DNA of 64,000 nucleotides, from NCBI GenBank assembly GCA_900316995.1, contig ONEZ01000010.1:3712-67711 (forward strand). The letters are read 5' to 3'. The notes under the pieces were generated by a model. The model worked only from the letters and a program-made list of their open reading frames with translations. It searched no databases and had not been told where the DNA came from. This DNA comes from an uncultured Bacteroidales bacterium (lineage in GTDB: Bacteria > Bacteroidota > Bacteroidia > Bacteroidales > Paludibacteraceae). Position 1 is the first letter of the stretch, and every line of letters begins with the position of its first letter. Both the position numbers and the translations under genes were made by a program. Positions 1-47,692 of the stretch are shown here, in pieces.

Positions 1-246
1 ACCAAGCTTTCGGGCAATGGAAGAACGAACTTGATCAACATTCAGTCGTATGCCCTCTATCTCCGAAGAATATACTACATCGTATGTCAGGTTCTCTGCC
101 ATAGCACGGAGTTTGCTGTCAAATCCCAATGAACTCAACCTGCCGTAAAGCAGGCCCTGTTTACGGAATACTTTCTCCTGAAGGAGTGACACTCGAGATG
201 TTTCCCAACGGAAGTCCGTCCAATTATCTCTTTCGTGTATATACAT
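1..246 (-). CDS. Fic/DOC family protein, N-terminal part only (gene runs off the left edge of the window)
   Basis: The reverse strand has an ATG at 246-244. Translation is MYIHERDNWTDFRWETSRVSLLQEKVFRKQGLLYGRLSSLGFDSKLRAMAENLTYDVVYSSEIEGIRLNVDQVRSSIARKLG. The SSEIEG...QVRSSIAR(K/R)LG pattern is typical of the DUF4172-type N-terminus of Fic proteins. It is absent from the ORF track because the window edge truncates it. Confidence 0.7.
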   Translation of the reverse strand, partial: MYIHERDNWTDFRWETSRVSLLQEKVFRKQGLLYGRLSSLGFDSKLRAMAENLTYDVVYSSEIEGIRLNVDQVRSSIARKLG

Positions 247-286
247 AATGCATTCGTACTTTGTGCGACATTACACAATGATTAAC

Positions 287-303
287 GTCGCAAATTCTGC
301 GAC
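287..303. promoter_or_regulatory. Operator-like palindrome GTCGCA-N5-TGCGAC (copy 1), abutting a reverse-strand TAnnTTTG box at 303-310
   Basis: The sequence gtcgcaaattctgcgac has perfect 6-bp arms. It lies directly downstream (in the Fic gene direction) of tatctttg, read on the minus strand at 310-303. That is a typical repressor position. Confidence 0.35.
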
Positions 304-348
304 AAAGATACGAATTTAATTCCGAATCAACAAATAAAGCTGCAAATT

Positions 349-365
349 GTCGCATACTATGCGAC
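349..365. promoter_or_regulatory. Operator-like palindrome GTCGCA-N5-TGCGAC (copy 2)
   Basis: The sequence gtcgcatactatgcgac has the same 6-bp arms and the same 5-nt spacer as copy 1, 62 bp away. An extra TGCGAC half-site lies at 264-269. Confidence 0.3.
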
Positions 366-462
366 GTTTTTAGTCAATAATCGTCGAAAGAGACTCATAA
401 GAGTATAAAAAGAGACCTGCCCAAACGGACAGGTCCCTTTACAAATTATGTTTAAGTGATAA

Positions 463-600
463 TTACTCTTTAACAGCGGCCTGGGCAGCGGCTACACGTG
501 CAATAGGCACACGGAACGGAGAGCATGATACATAGTTCAAACCAACTCTGTGGCAGAACTCTACTACGGCTGTAACCGAATGTCATCTGTGTAAGGTCGA
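463..600 (-). pseudogene. Remnant of the 3' end of a pyruvate,phosphate dikinase gene, with an internal ~174-bp deletion
   Basis: Positions 463-567 align with 3781-3892 (the last ~35 ppdK codons), and 568-600 is identical to 4067-4099. It translates to [33 protein letters not shown], identical to the intact PpdK C-terminus despite ~5 nucleotide changes. The downstream terminator and flank (350-462) is also duplicated from 3679-3780. Confidence 0.85.
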
Positions 601-848
601 TACTTGCCGTTAATCTCTGATGTTATCTTCAGTGCCTCCTGCGACAGCTGATGAAACATTTGATGGACATCGCCACCGCCGACAACACACTAGCATACGG
701 ACAGCGGCGAAGATTATTCCCATTAAGAATAAAATTCCGTCCTTTCCCTCATCACAACAATAATAAAGAACAGAATAAAAAAAAACAACGAGATTAAGAA
801 TCTTATTCCAAATATTCTAATAACTATAGATAGAATTGCCCATTTTCA

Positions 849-856
849 TAACTTTG
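849..856 (+). promoter_or_regulatory. Bacteroidetes-type -7 promoter box (TAACTTTG) for the LuxR-type regulator
   Basis: This is an exact TAnnTTTG match 22 nt upstream of the ATG at 878. Confidence 0.45.
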
Positions 857-877
857 CATGCAAAAAGTTACAGAAAA

Positions 878-1519
878 ATGGGTAATTTTATATTAGCAGA
901 CAATCAGGATCTCACACGCTTCGCGGTTGAACGAATAATCAGGGAAGACGAAAGGAATCAGGTCCGACGGGCACGCGACAAAACAGGGTTGCTACAGTTA
1001 CTGCAGGAGAATGAGAACTCGACAGTAGTGCTCGACTACACATTGTTCAACTTTGCAGACGAGTACCAGCTGCTGGTGATCAGCGAACGTTATGCCATGA
1101 CGAACTGGTTGCTGATCTCCGACGAGCTGACGGAGAAATTCCTCCGCAGAATCATTTACTCCTCACATGCCTTCAGCATCGTCTTCAAGGACAGCCCGAT
1201 ACAGCATATCCGGGAGGCATTGAGCTCCGCATGCCAAGGCCAGCGGTACATCAGCCAGCGGGCGATGGAGATGCTGCTGGAAAGCAGGCGGGAGGAAGAG
1301 GAGACTGAGGTTCTAACTGCAACAGAGATGGCCATCGTTAAGCTGATCGCACAAGGAAAGACAACGAAGGAAATCGCCACAGAGCGGTTTTCTAGTATCC
1401 ATACCATCACAACCCACCGGAAGAAAATCTTCAGGAAACTGAACGTGAACACGGCACACGAGGTAATCAAATATGCGCTTCGAGCCGGATGGGTGGACCC
1501 CTCGAAATTTTATATTTAA
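878..1519 (+). CDS. LuxR/FixJ-family transcriptional regulator (receiver-like N-domain + C-terminal LuxR HTH)
   Basis: The C-terminus LTATEMAIVKLIAQGKTTKEIATERFSSIHTITTHRKKIFRKLNV is a classic LuxR-type HTH. The N-terminal ~120 aa are receiver-like (VVLDY, FKD). I chose the ATG at 878 over the track start at 836 because the promoter box lies at 849-856. Confidence 0.8.
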   Translation: MGNFILADNQDLTRFAVERIIREDERNQVRRARDKTGLLQLLQENENSTVVLDYTLFNFADEYQLLVISERYAMTNWLLISDELTEKFLRRIIYSSHAFSIVFKDSPIQHIREALSSACQGQRYISQRAMEMLLESRREEEETEVLTATEMAIVKLIAQGKTTKEIATERFSSIHTITTHRKKIFRKLNVNTAHEVIKYALRAGWVDPSKFYI

Positions 1520-1550
1520 AAGTAAAGTGAAAAGAAAAAGGCAGGTCCGC

Positions 1551-1897
1551 TTATGCGAGGGCCTGCCTGATGTCATTCAGGATATCCTCCGGGTTTTCCA
1601 GCCCCAGACTGATACGAACCGTCGTGTCATGTACACCCATGTCTTCCCTTTGCTCATCGTTGAACAAGCCGAAGATGGTGAAAGCCATCTTCTTACCTAC
1701 TTTCTTTGTTTTGGACGACAGCACCGGATTGGGTGAAAGACAGAGAAGGGTACGATGGTGGTGTCGGCCATCAGTGCAGTGGCGATGGCTGCCATTCCGG
1801 TGTTGAGTGCCGTCGGAGCCATGGAACGTCCGCAGAAAGCGTCACTCATCGCATTGGCAGACTGAAACTCGAATGCCGCCGTGAGATAGACGGGCAT
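1551..1897 (-). pseudogene. Decayed Cys/Met-metabolism PLP-dependent enzyme gene (MetY/MetC-like), reduced to ~115 codons with a frameshift
   Basis: The N-terminal piece MPVYLTAAFEFQSANAMSDAF... and, in another frame, the C-terminal piece ...GVHDTTVRISLGLENPEDILNDIRQALA* resemble the two ends of O-acetylhomoserine sulfhydrylase or cystathionine lyase enzymes (~400 aa). The middle is missing. A TAACTTTG box lies on the minus strand at 1969-1962. Confidence 0.6.
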
Positions 1898-2050
1898 GGA
1901 GAGTGAGCCGTAGGCGTCTGACTTCTGATATTTCGTAGTCAGGATTTTTGCTTTTAGTAATATGTTGCAAAGTTAGGGCGGTTTCGTGAATTACGAAATC
2001 GCCCTGTTATGGCATTTTTTTTGTACCACAAATATGGTAATGGACGTTTA

Positions 2051-3235
2051 TTAGGACAAATCGTGGTCCGTCATGGCACATACACAGGAATCAGACCACA
2101 CATTTTCTGCCGTTTCTATCATGTCGATTACGGTGTAGATGGGAAGTATCAGCCCAAGAATTTCCACTGGAGCACCTATTCCAGACATCAAAGAGAATGT
2201 GAGGAAAAAACATCCCATCGGTACTCCAGCATTGCCAACAGCCGCAATGACCGAAATCAAAATCCACAACATGACAGTTGACACAGTCAGAGAAACTCCT
2301 CCGTTCTGCATCACGAAGAGAGACGTGACAAGGATAAAGGAGGCACAGCCGTTCATGTTGATGGTGGTGCAGATGGGCAGGATAAATCTCGCCACATCCT
2401 TCCGTACCCCAAGGCGATGCTCAGCAGACTCCATCGTGACGGGCAAAGTGGCAGCACTGCTTTTCGTGAAAAGTGCCATCAATACCGCAGGGCTCATTTT
2501 TGTAAACACTTGGACGGGATTGAGATGCCTCGCCAAAAGGAACAAAGGCAGCACGATTAAAAACTGGATGGCATTTCCCCCTAGTACCACAAGCACGTAT
2601 TTGCCTATGGAATCTACCATGATTCCCGCCCCCACCTGTGCCGTCAGTTGTGCTGCAAATGCCACGACGCCGAGCGGAAGAGTCCAAATCAGACCACGGA
2701 TGAGGAGAAACAGCAAGTCTTGCAATCCATTCAGTCCTTTGATTACAACCTGCTTGTTCTCAGAATCGGGAAGTTTGGACAAACCAATGCCTATGGCAAA
2801 TGACATAATCAGCAAGGCCAGTACATTTCCTTCAAGAAACGGTTTGATGAGGTTGTCTGGAATGGTGTTGAGAATATGATCATAATAGGTGGTTGACTGA
2901 GGATCCTGCATTGTCTCCGAAGCAACAATCTCCTCAGGCAGGTTGCCTGGCGACACCAGCCAAAAGAGGACAGCGCCGGTCACTGCCGCACAGACTGTTG
3001 TCAGCAGCGTATAGCCGAGCGCATGGCGGAACACCTTTCCTGTTTGTCTTCCAGTACCCATACGGGTCATCGTCGTGATTACTGCCAGCACAATCATGGG
3101 AACAGCCAGCAATCGGAACAATCGTGTATATACTGTTGCCACGAAATCCACGGCAACATCTACTGCATGGATTTGCAGCAATCCCAGGACTGCACCAGTC
3201 AGCAGTGCACCAATCCATATTGTAATCTGTTTCAT
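2051..3235 (-). CDS. Dicarboxylate/amino acid:cation symporter (DAACS, GltP/SstT-like)
   Basis: This is a 394-aa polytopic membrane protein. Motifs such as SSAATLPVTM and NMNG plus the overall hydrophobic pattern are typical of the sodium:dicarboxylate symporter family. Confidence 0.8.
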   Translation of the reverse strand: MKQITIWIGALLTGAVLGLLQIHAVDVAVDFVATVYTRLFRLLAVPMIVLAVITTMTRMGTGRQTGKVFRHALGYTLLTTVCAAVTGAVLFWLVSPGNLPEEIVASETMQDPQSTTYYDHILNTIPDNLIKPFLEGNVLALLIMSFAIGIGLSKLPDSENKQVVIKGLNGLQDLLFLLIRGLIWTLPLGVVAFAAQLTAQVGAGIMVDSIGKYVLVVLGGNAIQFLIVLPLFLLARHLNPVQVFTKMSPAVLMALFTKSSAATLPVTMESAEHRLGVRKDVARFILPICTTINMNGCASFILVTSLFVMQNGGVSLTVSTVMLWILISVIAAVGNAGVPMGCFFLTFSLMSGIGAPVEILGLILPIYTVIDMIETAENVWSDSCVCAMTDHDLS

Positions 3236-3536
3236 ATCTATAAATCAAACGTAAGGTTCACATAAATATTTCGTCCTTTCTGCGGAATATGGTTCCAGTC
3301 AGCATAGGTGGAATAACGGTTTTGATTTCGAGTGCAAAGTTACGGCGAAATATCGGATGTCGCAATCGCACTGGTGTGGCATTCTGCATACCAAACAAAT
3401 GGGAGGGATCCCACCGGCTGGGTCCCTCCCTTCTTCGTGCTTGACGCACAAAAAACCTTCAACATCCCAATAAGAAAATAATCTGGCACCAAACAGTAAG
3501 TCCACACGGGATGAGTGCAAGTCAGTCTTGACGCGC

Positions 3537-3564
3537 AGAGCCTTGCGGAGCTCCGCAAGGCTCT
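3537..3564. repeat. Perfect 28-bp palindrome (14-bp arms, no spacer)
   Basis: The sequence agagccttgcggag|ctccgcaaggctct lies in a non-coding stretch between the symporter gene and ppdK. Confidence 0.9.
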
Positions 3565-3723
3565 ATGATGGGGATACGTATCTTGACAGATTGTAGTGAC
3601 AATAAAATTAGAGATAGTGTAAACCTATTTTAGTTGAACGAAATATAGTGAAGGTCACACTAAAGAAACACAATGATGCATATTCTGCGATGTTTTTAGA
3701 CGATAATCGTTGAATGAACATCA

Positions 3724-3757
3724 TAAAAAGAGACCTGCCCAATCGGACAGGTCCCTT
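3724..3757 (-). terminator. Rho-independent terminator of ppdK
   Basis: A GACCTG...CAGGTC stem is followed on the minus strand by a T-run, 24 nt after the ppdK stop. The same structure is duplicated at ~410-440 next to the ppdK remnant. Confidence 0.7.
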
Positions 3758-3780
3758 TACAAATTATGTTTGAGTGATAA

Positions 3781-6504
3781 TTACTCTTTAACAGCTGCCT
3801 GCGCGGCGGCTACACGTGCAATAGGCACACGGAATGGAGAGCATGATACGTAGTTCAAACCAACTCTGTGGCAGAACTCTACTGATGAAGGCTCACCACC
3901 GTGCTCACCGCAGATACCGCACTTGAGGTCTGGGCGAACCTTGCGTCCCTTCTCTGTAGCCATCTGAACAAGCTGACCAACACCGTTCTGGTCAAGAACC
4001 TGGAATGGGTCATTCTTCAGAATCTTCATATCAAGATATGCTGGAAGGAATGAAGCAATATCATCACGGCTGTAACCGAATGTCATCTGTGTAAGGTCAT
4101 TTGTACCAAATGAGAAGAACTCAGCCTTGGTGGCAATGCGGTCAGCTGTAAGAGCTGCACGAGGTATCTCAATCATGGTACCAACCTTGAAATCTATGCG
4201 GTCACCAACCTCTTCAAATAATTTCTCAGCCTCAGCACGGATTATTCTCTCCTGATTGGCAAACTCATAAAGAATACCAGTAAGAGGAACCATAATCTCA
4301 GGGTGAGTCTCTACGCCCTCTTTCTTAAGCTGTAGAGCTGCGCCAAGGATGGCACGAGTCTGCATTTGTGTAATCTCTGGATATGTGTTACCAAGACGAC
4401 ATCCACGGTGACCAAGCATTGGGTTAGCCTCATGCAGTGAATCAACACGCTGGCGGATATAATCGTATGACACACCCATAATCTCAGCAAGCTCACGCTG
4501 CTCTTTCTCTTCATGAGGAACAAACTCATGTAGAGGTGGGTCAAGCAGACGAACTGTTACAGGGCAGCCTTCCATAGCCTTGAATATGCCATAGAAGTCA
4601 TTCTGCTGGTAAGGAAGAATCTTAGCCAAAGCACGCTTGCGGCCCTCAAGAGTCTCAGCAAGAATCATCTCACGCATAGCGCGAATCTTGTCGCCCTCAA
4701 AGAACATGTGCTCTGTACGGCAAAGGCCTATACCTACAGCACCAAACTTACGTGCAACCTCAGCATCGTGAGGAGTATCTGCATTAGTTCTTACGCGCAG
4801 GCGTGTGTATTTGTCACAAAGTTCCATAAGTGCGTTGAAGTCATCAGAAAGTTCTGCATCCTTAGTTGCAACTGCACCTACATAAACATCACCGGTAGAA
4901 CCGTTAAGTGAAATGAAATCACCCTCTTTAAGAGTAACGTCACCTACTGAAACTGTCTTTTTCTCATAACTGATTACAAGAGCACCTGCACCAGATACAC
5001 AGCACTTACCCATACCACGGGCAACTACGGCTGCGTGTGATGTCATACCGCCACGGGCTGTAAGAATACCCTCTGCGGCTGCCATACCTGCAAGGTCCTC
5101 TGGAGAGGTCTCAATACGTACCATAACCACTCTCTCACCCTTGCTTGCCCAAACTGCTGCATCCTCTGCGCTGAACACAACCTTACCACAAGCCGCACCT
5201 GGAGATGCTGCAAGACCCTTAGTGAACACCTTGGCTGACTTAAGGGCTGCTTTATCAAATACAGGGTGTAGAAGTTCATCAAGCTTGTTAGGCTCAATGC
5301 GGAGAAGAGCTGTCTTCTCATCAATAAGACCCTCACGTACAAGATCCATGGCAATCTTAACCATAGCGGCACCTGTACGCTTACCGTTACGTGTCTGCAG
5401 GAACCAGAGTTTACCCTCTTGTACGGTGAACTCCATATCCTGCATATCACGGTAGTGATCCTCAAGTTTATTCTGGATAGCGTCAAGTTCTTTGTAGATA
5501 GCAGGCATAGCCTCCTCCATTGATGGATATTTGCTTGCGCGCTCCTCCTCGCTAATACCTTGGAGTTTAGCCCAACGGCGGCTGCCCTCAAGTGTGATTT
5601 GCTGTGGTGTGCGGATACCTGCCACAACGTCCTCACCCTGTGCGTTTACAAGATACTCACCATTGAAGAGGTTCTCACCTGTGGCGGCGTTACGGCTGAA
5701 TGCCACACCTGTTGCAGATGTATCACCCATGTTACCAAATACCATTGCCATAACAGATACTGCTGTACCCCACTCATCAGGAATACCCTCCATCTTTCTA
5801 TAAAGTATGGCACGCTCGTTCATCCAGCTGCGGAACACAGCACAGATGGCACCCCAAAGCTGCTCAATTGGATCCTCTGGGAAATCTTTGCCTGTATTCT
5901 TCTTAATGGCTGCCTTGAAGAGCTTAACCAAATTCTTAAGAGACTCTACTGAAAGGTCTTTGTCAAGTACTACGCCTTGCTCACTCTTAACCTGCTCAAT
6001 AATGGCCTCAAACGGGTCAATATCGGTCTTCTTTTCAGGTTTCATGCCAAGCACAACATCGCCGTACATCTGAACAAAACGACGATATGAGTCATATACA
6101 AAGTGAGGATTGTTGGTTTTCTTAACCATACCCTCAGCAACTTTATCATTGAGACCAAGGTTAAGGATTGTATCCATCATACCCGGCATAGATGCGCGGG
6201 CGCCTGAACGTACTGATACAAGAAGAGGGTTTGCTTCATCGCCGAACTTGCTGTTCATCAGGCCCTCAATATGCTTTACTGCGGCAAGAACGTCTGCCTC
6301 AAGCACTTTAACTATCTGCTCCTGACCAACCTGATAGTACTCGTTACAAACATCTGTTGTGATTGTGAAGCCTGGAGGAACAGGAATTCCTATCAGGTTC
6401 ATCTCTGCAAGGTTGGCACCCTTACCGCCAAGCTGCTCACGCATCTTAGCGTTACCTTCGGCTTTTCCATTACCAAAGGTGTAAACACGTTTTTTAGAAT
6501 CCAT
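3781..6504 (-). CDS. ppdK: Pyruvate, phosphate dikinase
   Basis: This 907-aa ORF has the PEP-utilizer signatures GGMTSHAAVVARGMG (phosphohistidine) and a C-terminal TIM-barrel region (CGEHGGEP). It is full length. Confidence 0.97.
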   Translation of the reverse strand: MDSKKRVYTFGNGKAEGNAKMREQLGGKGANLAEMNLIGIPVPPGFTITTDVCNEYYQVGQEQIVKVLEADVLAAVKHIEGLMNSKFGDEANPLLVSVRSGARASMPGMMDTILNLGLNDKVAEGMVKKTNNPHFVYDSYRRFVQMYGDVVLGMKPEKKTDIDPFEAIIEQVKSEQGVVLDKDLSVESLKNLVKLFKAAIKKNTGKDFPEDPIEQLWGAICAVFRSWMNERAILYRKMEGIPDEWGTAVSVMAMVFGNMGDTSATGVAFSRNAATGENLFNGEYLVNAQGEDVVAGIRTPQQITLEGSRRWAKLQGISEEERASKYPSMEEAMPAIYKELDAIQNKLEDHYRDMQDMEFTVQEGKLWFLQTRNGKRTGAAMVKIAMDLVREGLIDEKTALLRIEPNKLDELLHPVFDKAALKSAKVFTKGLAASPGAACGKVVFSAEDAAVWASKGERVVMVRIETSPEDLAGMAAAEGILTARGGMTSHAAVVARGMGKCCVSGAGALVISYEKKTVSVGDVTLKEGDFISLNGSTGDVYVGAVATKDAELSDDFNALMELCDKYTRLRVRTNADTPHDAEVARKFGAVGIGLCRTEHMFFEGDKIRAMREMILAETLEGRKRALAKILPYQQNDFYGIFKAMEGCPVTVRLLDPPLHEFVPHEEKEQRELAEIMGVSYDYIRQRVDSLHEANPMLGHRGCRLGNTYPEITQMQTRAILGAALQLKKEGVETHPEIMVPLTGILYEFANQERIIRAEAEKLFEEVGDRIDFKVGTMIEIPRAALTADRIATKAEFFSFGTNDLTQMTFGYSRDDIASFLPAYLDMKILKNDPFQVLDQNGVGQLVQMATEKGRKVRPDLKCGICGEHGGEPSSVEFCHRVGLNYVSCSPFRVPIARVAAAQAAVKE

Positions 6505-6621
6505 AAAAAATCTATAATTAGGTTATAAAAATTTCGCTTTAACAATAGGGGGCAAAATTAATAAAAAAAGGTGAAAGTTAAAAGTTGAAAGTTGAAAATT
6601 ATAACTGTCAACTATTAACTG

Positions 6622-7299
6622 TCAACTATTCTGGTACATTCTCTCTCCAAATATTCCGCTCCCTACTCTAATCAGAGTGGCGCCACATTTAATTGCAATA
6701 GGATAGTCATGGGTCATGCCCATTGAAATTTCTGAAAAAGAATCTTTGTCAGAGAAGAATTCTGACTTGAGTTTTTGAAATATATTCTTAACATTTGAGA
6801 ACTCACGCTCTATCTGCGCCTCATCATCACTTATTGACGCCATACCCATTACACCTATTATAGATACATGCGCCAAACTCTTAAACTCGTCACTTCTCAA
6901 CATTTGCACGCACTCATCCAGTGTGAAGCCAAACTTGGTCTCCTCAGCCGCCACATGGAACTGCAGCAGGCAGTTCACCACCCTGCCGCACTTAGCAGCC
7001 TGCTTGTCAATCTCCTTTAGCAGTTTTAGTGAATCAACTGACTCTATACAAGCCACATACGGCACAATGTATTTTACCTTATTGGTTTGCAAATGACCTA
7101 TGAAGTGCCATTTTATATCCTTAGGCAAGGCCTGGGCTTTTGGCACAAGTTCCTGAGCATGGCTCTCTCCAAACAGCCTCTGACCCACACTGTACGCCTC
7201 TTCAATGCTCTCCACGGGATTGAATTTTGATACAGCCACCAGCCTCACTCCCTCTGGCAGCGATGCTTTGATTCTCTTAATATTTTCAGATATACTCAT
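6622..7299 (-). CDS. yggS: YggS-family pyridoxal-phosphate homeostasis protein
   Basis: LVAVSKF(lysine)...HFIGHLQTNKVKY...IRVGSGIFG is typical of YggS/PROSC. I used the ATG at 7299 (MSISENIK) instead of the track's TTG at 7320. Confidence 0.88.
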   Translation of the reverse strand: MSISENIKRIKASLPEGVRLVAVSKFNPVESIEEAYSVGQRLFGESHAQELVPKAQALPKDIKWHFIGHLQTNKVKYIVPYVACIESVDSLKLLKEIDKQAAKCGRVVNCLLQFHVAAEETKFGFTLDECVQMLRSDEFKSLAHVSIIGVMGMASISDDEAQIEREFSNVKNIFQKLKSEFFSDKDSFSEISMGMTHDYPIAIKCGATLIRVGSGIFGERMYQNS

Positions 7300-7316: not shown

Positions 7317-7420
7317 TCAACTTTACGTCAAGGCTTCGCCTTTCCGTGCAATTTGGCTACGCTCGGCATAACTGAAACAAGTTTCACTTCTGCTCTCGCT
7401 TGCAGCGTAATTCAACTGTC
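7317..7420. repeat. Interspersed ~105-bp intergenic repeat, copy A
   Basis: It is ~88% identical by eye to 57211-57313. The shared core is tcaactttacgtcaaggcttcgcctttccgtg...gctcggcata(a/t)(c/t)tgaaacaagtttca...ctgctctcgcttgc(a/g)gcgtaattcaactgt, including the palindrome TGAAAC-AA-GTTTCA. Confidence 0.85.
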
Positions 7421-7439
7421 AACTCTCAACTGTCAACTC

Positions 7440-7736
7440 TCAACTGATTATAACGTCTTTAATTATCATCTTGTCAGCCGATACTGCGCCATTCAATTTG
7501 TCACGGAGTGCAGTGCGCTGCATATTAAGCTCCCCACGCAGTATGCTATTGCTTACTCTGAGATGAAGCACGCCATCCCGTATATATGAACTTGTAACAT
7601 ATTTATGTATAAACTGACCTAATACAGTGGGAACCGCATCAAGAACACGCTGCTCATCCATTTTACCACTAAGCCCCATCTCTGCAAAATAGGTTTCAAG
7701 GATCTTTCCTATTGGTGTTACGCTTACTCTTCTCAT
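7440..7736 (-). CDS. DUF721 (DciA-like) domain protein
   Basis: This 98-aa ORF overlaps the recF stop by 4 nt. The recF-DUF721 pairing and the motif GVL.L.V.ns....EL......L...LN are typical. Confidence 0.7.
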   Translation of the reverse strand: MRRVSVTPIGKILETYFAEMGLSGKMDEQRVLDAVPTVLGQFIHKYVTSSYIRDGVLHLRVSNSILRGELNMQRTALRDKLNGAVSADKMIIKDVIIS

Positions 7737-8836
7737 AGCATCACCTTTCCGTCTATGACTTCAAAAATTTTAAATTTCCTCCCCGATGCGCGCTCAAGCA
7801 GGGCATCGAGGTTAGTACGGTTTGTATCAGTTATGAAAATCTGCCCGAAACCTCCGCCCGATACTATCTTTATTATCTGCTCCACCCTTACTGCGTCAAG
7901 TTTGTCAAAAATATCATCAAGAAGCAGTATTGGCGTGCGCCCCATGATTTTTTTCAGGTACTCAAACTGGGCGAATTTGAGTGCTAAAAGGAATGTTTTA
8001 TTCTGTCCTTGAGAACCCACCTTTTTTATAAGGTAATCACCTAAAAGCATATCAAGATCATCCTTGTGAACTCCTTTGGTGGTATGCCCCACTATGAGGT
8101 CAACCTTGCGTGAGAGCGAGAGCTGTGACAGATAGTTACCTGACTCAAGCTGAGAACGGTATATTAGCCGCACACTCTCCTTATCTGTGGATATTAGTTT
8201 ATAGTAGCGGTTAAACACTTTGGCAAACTCCTCCACAAACTGGCGGCGCGCTTCATAAACCACATGTGCAGACTCTGCCATCTGAGCCTCACATACTTCA
8301 TACAGCGTAGGATCATCAGACTGCTGTTTCAGCATAGTGTCTCTCTGGGCATGCCACTTATTGTAGTTAAGCAGGTGATATAGGTAATCCTTACTATATT
8401 GTGATATTACTGAATCCAGAAAACGGCGGCGGTTGTCGCTCCACTCCGATATAAGATTACTATCCTGCGGCGACACTATAACTATAGGGATAAGCCCTAT
8501 ATGGTCCGCCAGACGCTGATACTCCTTACCGCAGTTCTTCACTGATTTGCGTCCACCTATCTTGTAAGCCATTTGTATGGAGACTGAGTCTCCCTCTGCA
8601 GGCCTGTCTGACTCAAACACGCCTTGCAGCATAAAGAATTGTTCACCGTGGCGCACATTCTGACTGTCAACCAGGCCACTGCGGCTCTTGGTGCATGCCA
8701 GATAATAAACTGCATCAAGAAGATTTGTCTTACCCACACCATTATTCCCTACAAAGCAGTTGATACCATTGCAAAATTCAAGATTAGCCTCTGCAATGTT
8801 CTTATAGTTCAATATGGAGATAGTACCAAGCGTCAT
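7733..8836 (-). CDS. recF: DNA replication and repair protein RecF
   Basis: It has the Walker A GNNGVGKTNLLDA, the SMC-like signature GSQGQNKT and the Walker B LLLDDIFDKLD. Confidence 0.95.
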   Translation of the reverse strand: MTLGTISILNYKNIAEANLEFCNGINCFVGNNGVGKTNLLDAVYYLACTKSRSGLVDSQNVRHGEQFFMLQGVFESDRPAEGDSVSIQMAYKIGGRKSVKNCGKEYQRLADHIGLIPIVIVSPQDSNLISEWSDNRRRFLDSVISQYSKDYLYHLLNYNKWHAQRDTMLKQQSDDPTLYEVCEAQMAESAHVVYEARRQFVEEFAKVFNRYYKLISTDKESVRLIYRSQLESGNYLSQLSLSRKVDLIVGHTTKGVHKDDLDMLLGDYLIKKVGSQGQNKTFLLALKFAQFEYLKKIMGRTPILLLDDIFDKLDAVRVEQIIKIVSGGGFGQIFITDTNRTNLDALLERASGRKFKIFEVIDGKVML

Positions 8837-8995
8837 AATTAGCTACAAAGATACAATTTTTACAAAAAACTTGAATGTTTTTTGGCAATTTAACTATTTT
8901 GCTGTAATTTTGCACCCAGTTTTGACGCAATCTCTGATGGAGCATTGGAATCCATTACATTGCGCGTTAAGTCAAACCAAATAAAAAACATAGAA

Positions 8996-9349
8996 ATGGA
9001 CTTGATTAAAGTTGCCCAAGAGGCATTTGCTACAGGCAAAGAGGGTTCCCTTCCTCAGTTCAAGAGCGGTGACACCGTTACCGTATCTTACAAGATTAAA
9101 GAGGGAAACAAGGAGCGTATCCAGCAGTATCGTGGTGTGGTAATTAAAATCACCGGCCACGGCGATACAAAGCGTTTCACAGTTAGAAAAATGTCAGAAG
9201 GTGTTGGCGTAGAGCGTATCTTCCCATTCAACTCACCATTCATTGAGAAGGTTGAAGTTAACAAGATTGGCAAGGTTCGCCGTGCAAAACTCTATTATCT
9301 GCGTGACCTTACTGGTAAAAAAGCTCGTATTAAAGAGAAAGGAATCTAA
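8996..9349 (+). CDS. rplS: 50S ribosomal protein L19
   Basis: [29 protein letters not shown]...[13 protein letters not shown] is canonical bL19. I used the internal ATG at 8996 (117 aa) rather than the track start at 8945. Confidence 0.93.
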
Positions 9350-29500: not shown

Positions 29501-31120
29501 CTACTTAACCATAACCTTCACAGCCTCACCACCTATCTTTACCACATACACACCCGATGCAGGCACTGGGTTACCAACTGGCAGACCTGCTGTGTTGTAC
29601 ACTCTTATATCTGATGGCTCTTTCCCATTAACAGTAATCAACTTCTCACTTATAGAGATTGCATCCTTTATATTCTCTGAGGTGCTTTCATTTACATTCA
29701 CCAGATCTTCTATGCATTTAAAATTAGAGGAATCAAAATAGTTCCAACCATCCGCTATCATATAGTCAACAAGACTGGCACATGGCACATAAACTTCAAC
29801 ATCACTGCCTACATTTGCAAAGACATCGTTCGATGTTATAGTTGGCGGCATATCAGCACGACAAATAATTCTTTTAAGGCCAGTGCAGTTGGAAAATGCA
29901 TAGCCCTCTATTTCAGAGACTCCGCTTGGAATATCAACATTTTTTAAGTTTACACAATTTTTAAACAATTCAAAAGCAATCTTTGAAACATGTTCTGGGA
30001 TTGTAATATCCGTAATAGACGAACAATTCGCAAATGCAGCCCATTTAATATTATTCACACTTATAGGAATTACAATAGAAGACAAATTAGTACATGAAAA
30101 GAATGATCGTTCTCCTATTGAAACTACACCATTGGGAATCACAAACGAGTAAAGGCCTTCACAACCCTCAAAAGCTCCATTACCAATTGACAAAACCCCT
30201 TCTGGGATCATAGTATTTTTACATCCACAAACTAACGTATTGGAACTTGTCTCAATTATTGCATTACAGTTGCTGGTAGAATTGTAAATTGGATTATCTG
30301 GATGTACAATGATAGATGATAGATTTGTACAATATGAAAATGCTGATGGAGGTATATGCTCTACATTTTTAGGAATGAAAATTGCAGATAAACCTTCACA
30401 ATAAGAGAATGAACTGCCTAAATATCTAACAGTACTTGGAATTTCAACCGAGACCAATCTTTTACAATGCGAAAATACATCATCATTAATTACAGAAACG
30501 CCCTCATGCATTACAACAGATTCCAATTTTTCACAATTCTGAAACGCAAAACTTCCAATGTCACTGACATTTTCAGGTATCTCAATAGATGTTATATTTT
30601 TGCAACCATTAAATATGCCCTCAGAGACATACTGTAATCCATTAGGGAGCACCACTGGATCTGACAAATCTGTACATTCTCTAAATGCGGCGGCACCAAT
30701 ATTCAAAACACTATTTGGTATGTCTATTTTTAAAAGGCTTTTGCAATTATAAAAAGCTAAGACACCTATTTCCAACAAACTATTAGGAAAAATTACTGAT
30801 TGTAAATTCGTACAATCAGCAAACGCAGAATTACCTATCGATGTTATACCATTACTTATTGTAACCTTTGTTATGCCTTCTCTACCCTTACATGCATTAT
30901 CACCAATGGTCTTAACACCGTATGTTTTACCATCGTAGTTTACAACAACTGGGATTGTAACCTCACCCTCATAATCTTTGTCCTTGACAGACACTATTGT
31001 GGCATACTTGCCATCGTCTGAAGAATACTCTATGCCATCAACAACAAAGTTTGTTACAGCAGTAGCATTACATGAAACAGCGAACAATACCAGAACAAGA
31101 AAACGTCTAAATCTTTTCAT
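29501..31120 (-). CDS. BspA-type leucine-rich-repeat surface protein with a T9SS-type C-terminal sorting tail
   Basis: It has a signal peptide and ~16 repeats of the ~23-aa pattern I(P/E)..V..IG..AF..C..L.S(I/V). The C-terminal IRVYNTAGLPV....GVYVVKIGGEAVKVMVK resembles Por_Secre_tail. Confidence 0.8.
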   Translation of the reverse strand: MKRFRRFLVLVLFAVSCNATAVTNFVVDGIEYSSDDGKYATIVSVKDKDYEGEVTIPVVVNYDGKTYGVKTIGDNACKGREGITKVTISNGITSIGNSAFADCTNLQSVIFPNSLLEIGVLAFYNCKSLLKIDIPNSVLNIGAAAFRECTDLSDPVVLPNGLQYVSEGIFNGCKNITSIEIPENVSDIGSFAFQNCEKLESVVMHEGVSVINDDVFSHCKRLVSVEIPSTVRYLGSSFSYCEGLSAIFIPKNVEHIPPSAFSYCTNLSSIIVHPDNPIYNSTSNCNAIIETSSNTLVCGCKNTMIPEGVLSIGNGAFEGCEGLYSFVIPNGVVSIGERSFFSCTNLSSIVIPISVNNIKWAAFANCSSITDITIPEHVSKIAFELFKNCVNLKNVDIPSGVSEIEGYAFSNCTGLKRIICRADMPPTITSNDVFANVGSDVEVYVPCASLVDYMIADGWNYFDSSNFKCIEDLVNVNESTSENIKDAISISEKLITVNGKEPSDIRVYNTAGLPVGNPVPASGVYVVKIGGEAVKVMVK

Positions 31121-31360: not shown

Positions 31361-31435
31361 TTCCAAGATGCCGGACTGCACGTCAATAAACGCCTATTAT
31401 GTCGTGTGCAAAAGTATAAAAAAAGCGTTAAACCA

Positions 31436-31640
31436 CAAAGGCTTTAACCCTTTTTGTATTTCATACTAAATTTTATTACTTTTGCGGGTCAAAAACAATA
31501 AACTCATCTTAATTCAATGAGAGATTTCCAGCAGACAGATCAGAATGGTTTTTACGGCTCATTTGGTGGGGCGTACATTCCAGAGATATTGTACAAGACG
31601 GTAGAGAATCTTAAAGAGAGCCTATCTTAGTGCTCTTTTG
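31436..31640 (+). pseudogene. Duplicate of the trpB promoter and first ~37 codons (truncated trpB')
   Basis: It is ~98% identical by eye to 34139-34330. The ATG at 31517 gives [35 protein letters not shown], then an indel leads to a stop. Confidence 0.9.
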
Positions 31641-31791: not shown

Positions 31792-32077
31792 AAAAAAATA
31801 ACCTTGATGAAACTAAATTCATCAAAGTTATTATAATTAGTTGTAATATAGATGATTACACCAATATCACCAACTACTTTTGTCTATTATACCTAACAAA
31901 TCCAATAGATAACAGAAAGTGGAACATTCTTCGCCTTGGCTGCACTCGCCCATGAGTGACGAGCCACGTACATGTCAATCAGCACTGGCGTTTTGCGTGG
32001 ATTTGATACCCGACATTCTTTATTTAAAAATCAGCGAAAAAGGGAAATTTTTCTTGATTTTCGCTGATTTTTAAAAG

Positions 32078-32122
32078 GCATACTGCACGGCAGCCGTATA
32101 AAACATATGCAGACCGCCGATG
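32078..32122 (+). pseudogene. Internal trpB fragment (codons ~282-296)
   Basis: It matches 35064-35108 with one mismatch and is fused directly to the trpA 3' fragment. Confidence 0.85.
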
Positions 32123-32365: not shown

Positions 32366-32403
32366 ACGAGCAGTTCAAAAGGGTTCCTGAACTGAAGCTC
32401 ATC
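32363..32403 (-). pseudogene. Short nth-like fragment (codons ~23-36)
   Basis: gccacgagcagttcaaaagggttcctgaactgaagctcatc compares with 27617-27658 gccactatcagttcaaaagggtttctgaactgaagttcactc, ~6 mismatches in 41 nt. It abuts the AbiEii stop codon. Confidence 0.6.
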
Positions 32404-33422
32404 TACATTGAGCAAGATAATTGACGAAAGCGTTCTTCAAGCAGATGTAACCTCTCAATGAGTGCGTTAAAAGACAACTTTTCTCCATAAATCATTGACT
32501 CGCACATATACTGATAATCCCTCTCCCATTCATTAATGTACTTTTCAGAAGGGACCAAGCAAAGATGCCTCCTAATATCGTCTTTATAGTCCACACCCAT
32601 AATGGGAGTAAAAAGTTCTCTGTGATGGCGTATGTTTTCCCATAATGCGTCATCAGCTATGGCTTCCTTAGCATAATTAGTATCCATCAACTTCTCTAGG
32701 TCATAAAGATGCCTTGAACGACGTTTTGCTTGAAGACTATCATGGTCAAGAGAAAACAGTTCATGCAAAAGAAATACCTTTTCCAAGAATGTCTTGCCTG
32801 GTGTTGCAGTTGGAATTGTCACATCAATAAAAGTCGTACTTATCTGTGGCAGTATTGCTTCAATAAGTGATGTCACTCTTAAATCATTTATCGGTTCCAT
32901 CAATGACCTTGCTCCAATCTCAAGAACAATCATCGGTTTTACGTATTCTATAAAAGATGGAATAACCGTCTGGTATTGGATATAAACATGTCTTGGTTCT
33001 GGATAGGTGCCATCCCCTTCTCCATCCGGCTGAACACTTACAATAAGCTTATCCTGTAGTCCATATTTGGAAATTTGAGAAATAAGAATCTCCGGAACTT
33101 TTTCCTTCACAAAAAGAGAAGATGCCTTGCGCAACTTCTTAAGCTGCTTTTTCGTAGGCTCCCCATCAAGCCCGAACAAAGCATAATCAATTGCCAAATC
33201 AATATCTTCAGAAAAACGACTAATCAGATTACTGTTCTTGCTCAGCGATGTACCGCCCTTAAAAATCAGGTGCTTCCCCAAATCGGAATCAAAGATTAGC
33301 TGAAGTACTACAGTTACCCAATAATCCTTCTCCAATGCCTGTTCAGGTAATCCCATAATATTTTTGCACTGCGTCAGCACAACCTGCTGTTGAGCAGTAG
33401 TCAATTCAGAAAAATTACTCAT
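32403..33422 (-). CDS. Nucleotidyltransferase AbiEii/AbiGii-family toxin (type IV TA / abortive infection)
   Basis: This 339-aa ORF has LIFKGGTSLSK...RFSEDIDL, the DUF1814/AbiEii NTase signature (GG[ST]...[ST]ED[IL]D). It overlaps the upstream antitoxin gene by 8 nt. Confidence 0.85.
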   Translation of the reverse strand: MSNFSELTTAQQQVVLTQCKNIMGLPEQALEKDYWVTVVLQLIFDSDLGKHLIFKGGTSLSKNSNLISRFSEDIDLAIDYALFGLDGEPTKKQLKKLRKASSLFVKEKVPEILISQISKYGLQDKLIVSVQPDGEGDGTYPEPRHVYIQYQTVIPSFIEYVKPMIVLEIGARSLMEPINDLRVTSLIEAILPQISTTFIDVTIPTATPGKTFLEKVFLLHELFSLDHDSLQAKRRSRHLYDLEKLMDTNYAKEAIADDALWENIRHHRELFTPIMGVDYKDDIRRHLCLVPSEKYINEWERDYQYMCESMIYGEKLSFNALIERLHLLEERFRQLSCSM

Positions 33423-34020
33423 ACAAACCTGATATTAAGTTTCTAATCCATACTGGCATAAGTTTCAAATCATGTATAGAGAATGGTTCAGGATGCTGTT
33501 TTATTACCGTTTGCAACCGTTTAATATGTTCATCATTAACATTACCTTCTCCCAATTCCCTCAAAGCAGTAGTAACAAGCATTGCAAATTTATCATTAAA
33601 CGCCAACTTCTTGGGTGACACATGCTTAAAAAGGATTCCCCTGCCATTACTAATGTTAAATTTCCTATTGCTCCCGTCTGTCAAATATACCACATTCATA
33701 GGCACTTGAGTAGATAAACCCAACATATTTTGAGCCAAAGCTCCAGCAGGGAAAATCTTAACCTTATCCCTTTTTGCTATAACCTGTGCTATCTCATCAT
33801 AAGAAGGAAGTAGCGGTCCTAACCCCAACTCCTTATCAATCTTGGGATAACAGTAAATACCATGGCACACATGTAAAAGCAATCCCTTCTGAACCATTCT
33901 GCTAATTGCTTTTTGTACAGAATCAGGATTCCCGTAATGCGAGAACTCATTAGTGGAAAATGCCGTACCCCTTCCGCGTTTACTTAATACATTAATTATT
34001 TTATCTTCAATAGATTGCAC
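33415..34020 (-). CDS. AbiEi-family antitoxin / transcriptional regulator (DUF6088-like)
   Basis: The N-terminal wHTH-like region reads SIEDKIINVLSKRGRGTAFSTNEFSHYGNPDSVQKAISRMVQKGLLLHVCHGIYCYP. I chose the GTG at 34020 because a minus-strand TAACTTTG box lies ~45 nt upstream. The track's TTG at 34098 would include the promoter. Confidence 0.75.
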   Translation of the reverse strand: MQSIEDKIINVLSKRGRGTAFSTNEFSHYGNPDSVQKAISRMVQKGLLLHVCHGIYCYPKIDKELGLGPLLPSYDEIAQVIAKRDKVKIFPAGALAQNMLGLSTQVPMNVVYLTDGSNRKFNISNGRGILFKHVSPKKLAFNDKFAMLVTTALRELGEGNVNDEHIKRLQTVIKQHPEPFSIHDLKLMPVWIRNLISGLYE

Positions 34021-34180
34021 TATATTATTCTTATATTTTTGTCGGTTTTTTAATGAAAATTTCCGACACAAAGTTATTATTTTTTGATTAAACCACAAAA
34101 AAGTGGCTAAGAAAAAATTTTAGCCACCCCCAATACAAACAAAGGCTTTAACCCTTTTTGTATTTCATACTAATTTTTAT

Positions 34181-34188
34181 TACTTTTG
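34181..34188 (+). promoter_or_regulatory. TAnnTTTG promoter box (TACTTTTG) of the trp operon
   Basis: It lies 33 nt upstream of the trpB ATG. The leader is short, with no leader peptide or attenuator hairpins visible. An identical box occurs in the duplicated copy at ~31478-31485. Confidence 0.5.
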
Positions 34189-34220
34189 CGGGTCAAAAAT
34201 AATAAACTCACCTTAATTCA

Positions 34221-35426
34221 ATGAGAGATTTCCAGCAGACAGATCAGAATGGTTTTTACGGCTCATTTGGAGGGGCGTACATTCCAGAGATATTGTACAA
34301 GACGGTAGAGAATCTTAAAGAGAGCTACCTTAGTGTGATAGAGAGCGAGTCATTCAAAAAGGAGTATCACGCACTACTTAAAGACTACGTGGGTCGCCCG
34401 AGCCCTCTATACTACGCGGCACGCATGAGCGAGAAGTATGGGTGCCGGCTATACCTTAAACGTGAGGATTTGAACCATACCGGCGCACATAAGATAAACA
34501 ACGCCATAGGTCAGGCGCTGCTTGCAAAACGGTTAGGCAAAAAGCGTATAATTGCAGAGACGGGAGCAGGACAGCATGGAGTGGCAACCGCTACTGTATG
34601 CGCCCTGATGAACCTGCCCTGCCGTGTGTACATGGGTGCGCTTGACGTTGAGCGCCAGCACGTTAACGTGGAGCGTATGCGTATGCTTGGCGCGGAGGTG
34701 TTCCCAGTTCAGAGCGGTAACAAAACCCTGAAGGACGCAACTAACGAGGCCATCAGGGACTGGTGCTGCCACCCTGCAGACACATTCTACATAATAGGTT
34801 CAACAGTAGGCCCTCACCCCTACCCCGATATGGTGGCACGCCTGCAAAGCGTTATATCAGAGGAGATAAAGTGGCAGCTTGAGGAGCATATAGGCCGTGA
34901 CTATCCAGACTACATACTGGCATGTGTGGGAGGCGGAAGCAACGCCGCAGGTGCCATATACCACTTCCTTAATAATGAGAAAGTGCGCATTGTGCTTGCT
35001 GAAGCTGGCGGACTGGGCATGGAGACTGGCAAGACCGCCGCATCGCTGCAGATAGGCACAACCGGCATACTGCACGGCAGCCGTATAAAACTTATGCAGA
35101 CCGCCGATGGGCAGATTGTGGAGCCATATTCAATATCGGCGGGGCTTGACTACCCTGGTACAGGTCCTCTGCACTGCAACCTCTATGAAACCGGTAGAGC
35201 CAAGGTGCTTGCTGTTAATGATGATGAGGCTCTGCAGGCTGCATTTGAGCTCACAAGGCTTGAGGGCATAATTCCGGCACTCGAGAGCAGCCATGCCCTT
35301 GCCCTGCTACCAAAAATGAAATTCAAAAAAGATGATGTGGTGGTTCTGAACGTAAGCGGGCGCGGTGACAAGGACCTTAACACATATCTGGCACATAAAG
35401 ATGAGATAGACTATGACAAAATTTAA
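34221..35426 (+). CDS. trpB: Tryptophan synthase beta chain
   Basis: It has HTGAHKINN (PLP lysine) and GGGSNAAG. The ORF is 401 aa. Confidence 0.97.
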
Positions 35427-47507: not shown

Positions 47508-47637
47508 ATCGTTTAGTTCTGTTATTTACACTAACCATAAAATTAGTTAATATATATTAACAATAAACTATTTAATTGTTAAATATTTTAGCATTTAACA
47601 AGGCGGAGTAAAATTTTAACACTATCTGAGCATATAA

Positions 47638-47666
47638 CAAAAAAAAGCGGGGAACTAAGTCCCCGC
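47638..47666 (-). terminator. Rho-independent terminator of giant gene B
   Basis: The hairpin gcgggga-actaag-tccccgc is followed on the minus strand by a run of 8-9 T. The two giant genes therefore appear to be separate transcription units. Confidence 0.75.
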
Positions 47667-47692
47667 CTCTGTAATAAATTTGTAACAAATTA

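Follow-up and report, generated by a model that had tools for sequence, protein, structure and literature searches.

Why does a chromosome with an intact ppdK gene carry the end of that gene a second time, 3.3 kb away? The question is raised by a 64,000-nt stretch of DNA from an uncultured Bacteroidales bacterium of the Paludibacteraceae (assembly GCA_900316995.1, contig ONEZ01000010.1, positions 3,712-67,711), referred to throughout as the window. A preliminary description of this DNA had taken the segment at 350-600 for the former end of ppdK, displaced by an element that brought in a replacement end of its own.

Anatomy of the two ppdK ends

Read in the direction of ppdK, the order of features is ppdK, terminator, flank, IS3-like scrap, symporter (SDF) gene, PLP-enzyme fragments, GerE gene (on the opposite strand), filler, ppdK remnant, second terminator and Fic, with the following coordinates (L numbers denote comparison loci):

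3781..6504, minus strand: intact ppdK, 907 aa (Pfam PPDK_N, PEP-utilizers and PEP-utilizers_C)
3788..3807, minus strand: attB-like core GCCGCGCAGGCAGCTGTTAA, with 2 mismatches to the published motif GYSGCNCARGCKGCHRTHGA
3725..3755, minus strand: ppdK terminator hairpin and T-tract of the cassette-borne type, read from the sequence
3660..3724, minus strand: truncated left-end module of a PAD-type cassette (cut at ~3660), alignable with those of L001, L144 and L150 up to ...CTTTAG
3446..3645, strand not assigned: internally deleted scrap of an IS3-like element, made of pieces of the IS in L009 (HTH_Tnp_1 and rve)
2051..3235, minus strand: sodium:dicarboxylate symporter gene, 394 aa (Pfam SDF, E = 1.8e-92)
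1551..1970, minus strand: pseudogene fragments of a Cys/Met-metabolism PLP enzyme, with broken ORFs (Pfam Cys_Met_Meta_PP on the C-terminal 39 residues only)
878..1519, plus strand: LuxR/GerE-type response regulator, 213 aa (Pfam GerE; weak match to Response_reg)
599..680, minus strand: filler, approximately codons 15-41 of a maa-like hexapeptide sugar O-acetyltransferase gene (95% over 37 aa to a 191-aa ORF of L153)
566..598, minus strand: ppdK′ piece A, a perfect match to 4066-4098, bounded 5′ at 598 by an illegitimate joint that L110 also has
463..565, minus strand: ppdK′ piece B, the last 34 codons and stop, with a degenerate att core at 470-489
407..437, minus strand: second copy of the terminator hairpin and T-tract (read from the sequence, repeat search and alignment)
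335..406, minus strand: left-end module of a Fic-type cassette, a spacer with an arm-like motif/palindrome at 351-371, aligning with L115, L149 and L118
1..334, minus strand: Fic promoter region and first 82 codons of Fic (DUF4172; Pfam E = 3.7e-28)

The repeat reported in the preliminary description is real. A repeat search of the window matched 405-565 to 3723-3883 over 161 nt (96% identity, 7 mismatches) and 566-598 to 4066-4098 over 33 identical nt, and pairwise alignment extended a weaker similarity of ~75% as far as ~352 opposite ~3678, with one 8-nt indel. The internal deletion it had described is likewise present, with corrected limits: the identical stretches lie at 566-598 and 4066-4098, not at 568-600 and 4067-4099, and positions 3884-4065 are absent from the remnant, a frameshifting loss of 182 bp and not of ~174. 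What is left in the window is 136 nt of ppdK (318 nt before the deletion). As had been stated, the last 34 codons of the remnant encode exactly the PpdK C-terminus and all 5 of its coding differences from the intact gene are synonymous; each is at a third position, a pattern with P ~9e-4 under random substitution, 25% of the possible single changes in these codons being synonymous.

The remnant has no likely function, and none is indicated: it is frameshifted in the window, and the copies in L098 and L110 carry an R-to-S and an A-to-T change, respectively. Side effects are possible, in that it may provide a spare, degenerate att core and a spare terminator upstream of Fic, and its 161-nt homology to the intact end could loop out the 3.3 kb between the copies. 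For annotation purposes, 463-598 should be labelled a ppdK pseudogene fragment, and the ppdK terminator with ~120 nt beyond it should be regarded as element-derived.

The flanks of the two ends differ in kind. The same terminator hairpin that follows the intact gene is found 3′ of ppdK in L115, L144, L149, L150 and L118 despite the divergence of their ppdK genes (74% nucleotide identity in L115). In the allele class of L101 and L097, this hairpin (window 3730-3755; L101 8057-8088) is inverted and the protein ends in ...AAVEE* rather than ...AAVKE*. The possibility that the flank after the intact terminator was a truncated Fic upstream region was considered and rejected, this flank being a normal PAD-type cassette left end. 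Its arm-like motif, at 3677-3697, belongs to a motif with two occurrences in the whole window (motif scan); the same scan placed the arm-like motif of the Fic-type module, in which the repeat search also found an inverted repeat. The flanks are thus only ~75% alike, against 96-99% for the coding parts, because one is the left end of a PAD-type and the other that of a Fic-type cassette.

Between the two ends, the SDF gene adjoins ppdK on all contigs long enough to reveal the neighbourhood. The IS3-like scrap is missing from L110, and L009 carries a full copy of the IS3-like element (7816-9345) directly after the ppdK terminator, at the equivalent of window position 3725. The PLP pseudogene region between transporter and regulator varies in length among strains (L103, L110). 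A block of sequence common to the window, L103, L104 and L109 stops at 681, where the filler begins. Loose contig ends in rumen sequencing runs indicate that the filler belongs to a common gene; a Pfam search with its 39-aa peptide gave no match, and no source for it was found in the neighbouring loci.

At the other side of the remnant, Fic begins at 246 and continues past the left edge of the window, and its promoter region holds GTCGCA-N5-TGCGAC palindromes, three of which precede the gene. Together with 124 nt of upstream DNA, Fic forms a discrete 1.4-kb unit (1416 nt) that recurs in unrelated contexts at 85-91% nucleotide identity; the copy in L111 (7877-9292) is 89% identical and is flanked by GCCCCCTAAAGGGGG hairpin repeats, and the unit (window 1-370) was also compared in L113 and L112. 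Approximately 8000 proteins matched Fic at E <= 1e-30, the best 120 of them being 86-96% identical.

A second duplication noted in the preliminary description, that of the trpB 5′ end, was also found to be real and to flank an AbiEii/AbiEi pair. The trpB promoter and first 115 nt (31435-31632 and 34139-34335) and a 46-nt internal piece (32077-32122 and 35064-35109) are duplicated at 97-98% identity upstream of intact trpB (34221-35426), in a topology like that at ppdK; the AbiEii/AbiEi (DUF6088) toxin-antitoxin pair between the copies occupies 32403-34098 on the minus strand. Elsewhere in the window, short tandem repeats of the AACTGTCAACT type (6589-6627 and 7414-7452, 811 nt apart) lie on either side of a YggS-like (Ala_racemase_N) gene, a BspA-type LRR protein is encoded at 29501-31120, and two very large ORFs of 1602 and 3104 aa occupy 42699-57007 on the minus strand.

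Cassettes at the 3′ end of ppdK

The ppdK 3′ end in gut Bacteroidota is a reported integration site of PvCTn-like conjugative transposons, along with five other MGEs, and its attB has the 20-bp core motif GYSGCNCARGCKGCHRTHGA (PMC11005914). The published motif has a single match in the 64-kb window, at 3788-3807 within ppdK; the corresponding core of the remnant, as read from the sequence at 470-489, has 3 mismatches to it. With respect to the locus, then, the idea of an element bringing a replacement ppdK 3′ end holds good, and it is borne out by L115, which comes from a distant organism (74% ppdK identity). Here the last ppdK codons (...AAVEE*) and the terminator are of the cassette type; Fic, an Rce1-like gene and a conserved right end come next, and beyond them lies a displaced host end, AATRAAVENA*, with a hairpin of its own. 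This arrangement is a site-specific insertion that carried a replacement 3′ end. Relatives with Fic directly 3′ of ppdK do exist, as seen from the synteny of L115, L149 and L118.

A scan of metagenome contigs for a 29-mer of the conserved right end yielded 54 of them. The offset at which the right end adjoins the C-terminal codons of PpdK is constant in 49 of these and in 4 reference loci, and the displaced terminators are of many different kinds; of the other five contigs, four stop short of the joint and the fifth (L116) lacks the core. The ending AAAQAAVEE* was found in 34 of the 53 sequences analysed, the 4 reference loci included, and clustering of the DNA beyond the displaced stop gave 18 sequence classes among the 45 metagenome contigs that were long enough. 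The right end (~125 nt) is conserved from approximately -35 to +89 relative to the 29-mer, with a consensus around GAGCGTGTAAAAACGTGCAGAATGTGTCG...CATCTGTTAG. The left end (~130 nt) consists of stop codon, terminator, spacer and a AAAAACGTCGCA...TGCG motif; it is kept between Fic-type and PAD-type cassettes and shared by cassettes with different cargo. The left-end motif resembles GTAAAAACGTGCAGAATGTGTCG of the right end, and both could be arm-type binding sites.

Five contigs (L118, L144, L149, L150 and L164) reach back to ppdK and carry only 2-3 kb of small cargo up to the right end; others have different cargo beside the right end and do not extend as far as ppdK. The cargo comprised Fic, a hexapeptide acetyltransferase, an AAA_33 kinase, PAD_porph, an aspartyl protease and ArsP (an arsenic-type permease), together with genes that look like those of regulators or defence functions. 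A crude motif test of the cassette contigs revealed no tyrosine-recombinase motif. In L155, two right ends are separated by 1.8 kb. The suggestion that Fic lies downstream of attR sites as tandem cassettes only was rejected, since many decayed or replaced versions were seen; tandem arrays and decay therefore both occur. Left ends accept insertions as well, as seen in a JGI rumen contig (L171, 2440-7000), where 4.3 kb lie between cassette terminator and Fic spacer without duplication; the genes in this insert are ImmA/IrrE-like (HTH_3 and Peptidase_M78), DUF3368 and DUF4417.

In the case of the Fic cassette, the attL core is that of the remnant, where the cassette begins, and the junction of right end and core is at a third ppdK end, r3. 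This end (~80 nt) was detected by BLAST in L001, L002, L003 and L110 (L003 19150-19366; L110 10896-11143) and lies ~2.8 kb to the left of the window edge in matching contigs. The cargo between the two comprises Fic, a 216-aa protein and PAD_porph, with integration and transfer genes absent; Pfam gave no match for the 216-aa protein or for a 368-aa protein. The part of r3 homologous to ppdK extends from the att core onwards, with the conserved right end before it. By these features, r3 is the true attR scar of the Fic cassette and the genuine displaced end.

The same features bear on the remnant. If the 3.3-kb block were a site-specific element with its own replacement end, 350-600 would be the displaced resident end (attR), as the preliminary description had proposed. 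The 3′ end of ppdK is after all a proven attB, cassettes at this site do bring replacement ends, three of the five coding differences fall inside the 20-bp core, and the core is present in the intact (3788-3807) as well as the remnant copy (470-489). However, homology at an attR must start at the core, and that of the remnant exceeds it by 291 nt in L110 and by 70 + 33 nt in the window. No conserved right end was found abutting the remnant, where the 82-nt acetyltransferase filler and the GerE block lie instead; among loci identical to window positions 1-7000 (L003 and L004), BLAST with the right end matched at r3 only, so that the copy with an attR structure is a separate, third one. Pfam, BLAST and motif scans of the 3.3-kb block revealed no integrase, conserved cassette right end or att-type junction; the Pfam matches between the repeats were SDF, GerE and the PLP fragment only, with neither transfer genes nor a recombinase family among them, and the tyrosine-recombinase box II motif was absent from the 64-kb window and related loci in a crude motif scan. 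Finally, a ppdK fragment in L103 has a different 5′ truncation point. Given the homology 291 nt upstream of the core, the missing right end and the differing truncation in L103, the remnant is therefore not an attR; this reading is largely refuted, and we regard it as very improbable. The remnant is rather an attL-type junction, made up of ppdK, core and cassette left end, from which all sequence upstream of the equivalent of position 4098 has gone. Going by its structure, no integrase could have made it, whereas an illegitimate joint plus homologous recombination could.

CIMEs are elements that have kept attL and attR and lost their integration and transfer genes (PMC5704250). The present cassettes appear to fit this definition while carrying their own stop codon and terminator, and small conserved-arm cassettes of this kind from rumen Bacteroidales were not described in the literature examined. 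It is conceivable, although we would not call it probable, that an active and as yet undescribed system of integrase-less 2-4-kb cassettes exists at the ppdK 3′ end in Bacteroidales of the ruminant gut; its cassettes, with left arms providing stop codon, terminator and the final PpdK codons, would form arrays at a PvCTn-family core and be moved by integrases supplied from elsewhere (in trans or in cis). If so, an integron-like gene-capture site would rest on a housekeeping gene, and ppdK fragments such as that at 350-600 would be portable homology for reshuffling arrays between species by ordinary recombination.

Strain comparison and the origin of the remnant

The filler|ppdK′ junction at 598/599 was found in 9 distinct rumen metagenome contigs, which belong to at least 5 assembly sets produced by different assemblers. 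That the window's structure is a chimera of metagenome assembly might be suspected from its matches being metagenomic contigs and from the 33-nt exact repeat, which exceeds common k-mer sizes. The sharing of 598/599 by 9 contigs from several studies, samples and assemblers indicates that the junction is not an assembly artefact; a variant with an undeleted remnant and 1-2% divergence, L110, also keeps the joint. A chimera is thus scarcely credible. In L110, whose ppdK is 93% identical to that of the window, the composite structure is the same and the remnant is an uninterrupted 318 nt (101-aa ORF); the 182-bp deletion is therefore secondary.

The duplication is not universal and is polymorphic among related strains. 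A protein identical to the PpdK of the window is present on 21 contigs, contigs with identical PpdK display at least 6 downstream architectures, and look-ups of the SDF and GerE proteins add further ones. In L103, L104 and L109, the ppdK-SDF-GerE arrangement runs into TerC and the remnant is absent from that place. L103 has, further downstream, a 1.3-kb ppdK 3′ fragment of a different allele class, with a different joint and with nonsynonymous changes, and the DNA 3′ of it is the DNA that follows r3 in L110. As its 5′ truncation point differs from that of the window, the truncation is variable, as expected for illegitimate ends. No same-species strain with ppdK and the Fic cassette and without the SDF block was found. 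In a PpdK search of genome contigs, the relatives among the matches listed all had 81% amino acid identity or less, and a degenerate ppdK 3′-end pattern matched nothing among metagenome contigs. Logan contigs from four rumen/goat runs were too fragmented to reveal alternative joints; one apparent joint in this set ("goes back 3500") was set aside, as its path runs through the 33-nt repeat, so that a graph chimera is possible.

Evidence for exchange between lineages came from L101, which is 100% identical to window positions 1-3737 and to 8 kb past the window edge, and 2-10% diverged from position 3738 onwards. The identity of the island and the divergence of the core indicate that the whole island has recently moved between lineages. 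Since the breakpoint at 3737/3738 sits 50 nt downstream of the att core, the present exchange of the island was homologous and not integrase-mediated, and the latter possibility was dismissed. A mosaic ppdK allele was found in L097, and the core of L110 is mosaic relative to the window; homologous exchange at the ppdK locus is rampant.

The remnants of the window (463-598) and L110 (7467-7784) differ from each other at 4 sites, all third-position and synonymous (P ~0.004 under neutrality), a pattern not predicted by simple neutral decay after a single event and one that hints at repeated recombination with functional alleles. The earlier view that the two copies in the window derive from functional alleles of different lineages is upheld by the synonymous-only differences between these two copies and by the allele comparisons; they are alleles that underwent divergence in separate lineages under purifying selection. 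If the ppdK 3′ region had instead been duplicated in tandem within one genome and the copies had then diverged, with gene conversion and deletions, their 96% likeness would be accounted for, and conversion from functional copies could restrict the differences between the two strains' remnants to synonymous sites. Such a history is nonetheless extremely improbable: the flanks of the copies, ~75% alike, are of two cassette types, 3 synonymous variants of the remnant occur in none of the intact alleles compared, and the L110 remnant is only 81.5% identical to L110's own ppdK 3′ end.

For the origin of the remnant we tentatively favor, at not quite an even chance, an HFIR import, in which one illegitimate joint and homologous recombination between two lineages placed a ppdK′-Fic block onto an SDF-GerE block; we infer both the direction of this event and its one-sided homologous mechanism. 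At the ppdK attB, cassettes insert at one fixed position, each pushing the previous ppdK end outward. ppdK, the stub of a cassette left end and the SDF-GerE block would already have been present in the recipient chromosome. An incoming segment of another lineage, which started 318 nt short of the ppdK stop codon and extended through the Fic cassette and its attR into downstream DNA, would then have been resolved at its far end by homologous recombination, and its ppdK end would have been joined illegitimately behind GerE, trapping 82 nt of the acetyltransferase gene. The 182-bp deletion inside ppdK′ came later, reducing 318 to 136 nt. Import is favored because the SDF-type arrangement stands alone in diverged strains and homologous exchange at the locus is frequent. 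A non-homologous joint with filler, a feature of HFIR, is seen in the joints 598/599 and 680/681, which enclose 82 nt of an unrelated gene. All contigs end before any right-hand homologous anchor, and the type of the donor is deduced from the distant L115, L149 and L118. Natural transformation is not known in this bacterial group.

A serious rival, possible in our view and yet rather unlikely, predicts the same final structure by a Campbell-type event: a circle with the ppdK 3′ 318 nt, the left-end stub and the SDF-GerE block, produced by aberrant excision or from a circularised transferred fragment of an SDF-type strain, would have entered a ppdK-Fic chromosome by a single crossover. The 3′ part of the remnant and Fic would then be resident, and the intact 3′ end with the 3.3 kb would be the newcomers. 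The block is indeed flanked by direct repeats of ~440 nt in the same orientation (4098-3660 and 598-335), including 318 nt of ppdK in L110, one of them 5′-truncated at a single illegitimate joint; both parental arrangements exist, the SDF type in L103, L104 and L109 and ppdK-Fic in L115, L149 and L118; and the trpB 5′ duplication around the AbiE pair has the same topology. Conversely, linkage of the SDF block to ppdK holds for all contigs of sufficient length and for diverged strains, which would be expected of a long-standing resident, and the window and L103 would need two independent circles of different extent. No circular form was seen, and for reciprocal chimerism of the two copies at the crossover point the informative sites are too few and the reference alleles themselves mosaic.

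The value of the remnant is that of a marker. The ppdK attB published from the human gut is also a busy site of gene exchange in rumen bacteria, where whole composite islands move between lineages with core DNA 4-7% different and where site-specific cassette insertion and homologous/illegitimate recombination have jointly shaped the locus. The conserved cassette arms provide simple sequence tags with which to mine cargo at the ppdK site, and a handle on whether PvCTn-type integrases mobilise integrase-less cassettes.

Comparison with known systems

The situation at ppdK recalls that of phage 21 and e14 in E. coli icd, where the element brings an alternative 3′ end differing mainly at synonymous sites and the resident icd 3′ end is left on the far side as a pseudogene. 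In icd, the crossover site is where the duplicated piece begins, and the integrase is encoded by the element; the 350-600 copy, in contrast, neither begins at the crossover site nor comes with an element-encoded integrase.

Elements that integrate at the ppdK 3′ end and restore its stop codon have already been published, and CIMEs, accretion and HFIR scars are likewise known kinds. With PvCTn-like elements (PMC11005914), the cassettes share the ppdK target gene, the 20-bp attB core (2 mismatches at 3788-3807), the regeneration of the stop codon by the incoming element and imperfect direct repeats at both ends. PvCTn-like elements differ in being large and in carrying an integrase, T4SS genes and the BVU3432/3433 regulators, whereas the units described here are of 2-4 kb and without integrase, and the remnant of the window is not an att product.

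A closer parallel in organization is offered by the ICESt1/ICESt3-related elements at fda of Streptococcus thermophilus, where CIMEs and tandem accretion occur at the 3′ end of a housekeeping gene (PMC5704250). Both systems feature integrase-less islands with attL and attR, in tandem at the 3′ end of a gene of central metabolism whose end is repeated at each junction. They differ in phylum and recombinase family, and the remnant of the window carries far more of the target gene than would an att site.

The remnant itself is best compared with the products of HFIR and with the sequential displacement of T6SS effector/Rhs 3′ ends (PMC5361080; PMC3240628), with which it has in common a conserved upstream anchor gene, one illegitimate joint and orphan 3′ pieces arranged downstream by age. 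The T6SS-Rhs modules encode toxin and immunity functions under diversifying selection, whereas at ppdK the end of a housekeeping gene, without apparent function, is combined with a site-specific system at the same locus.
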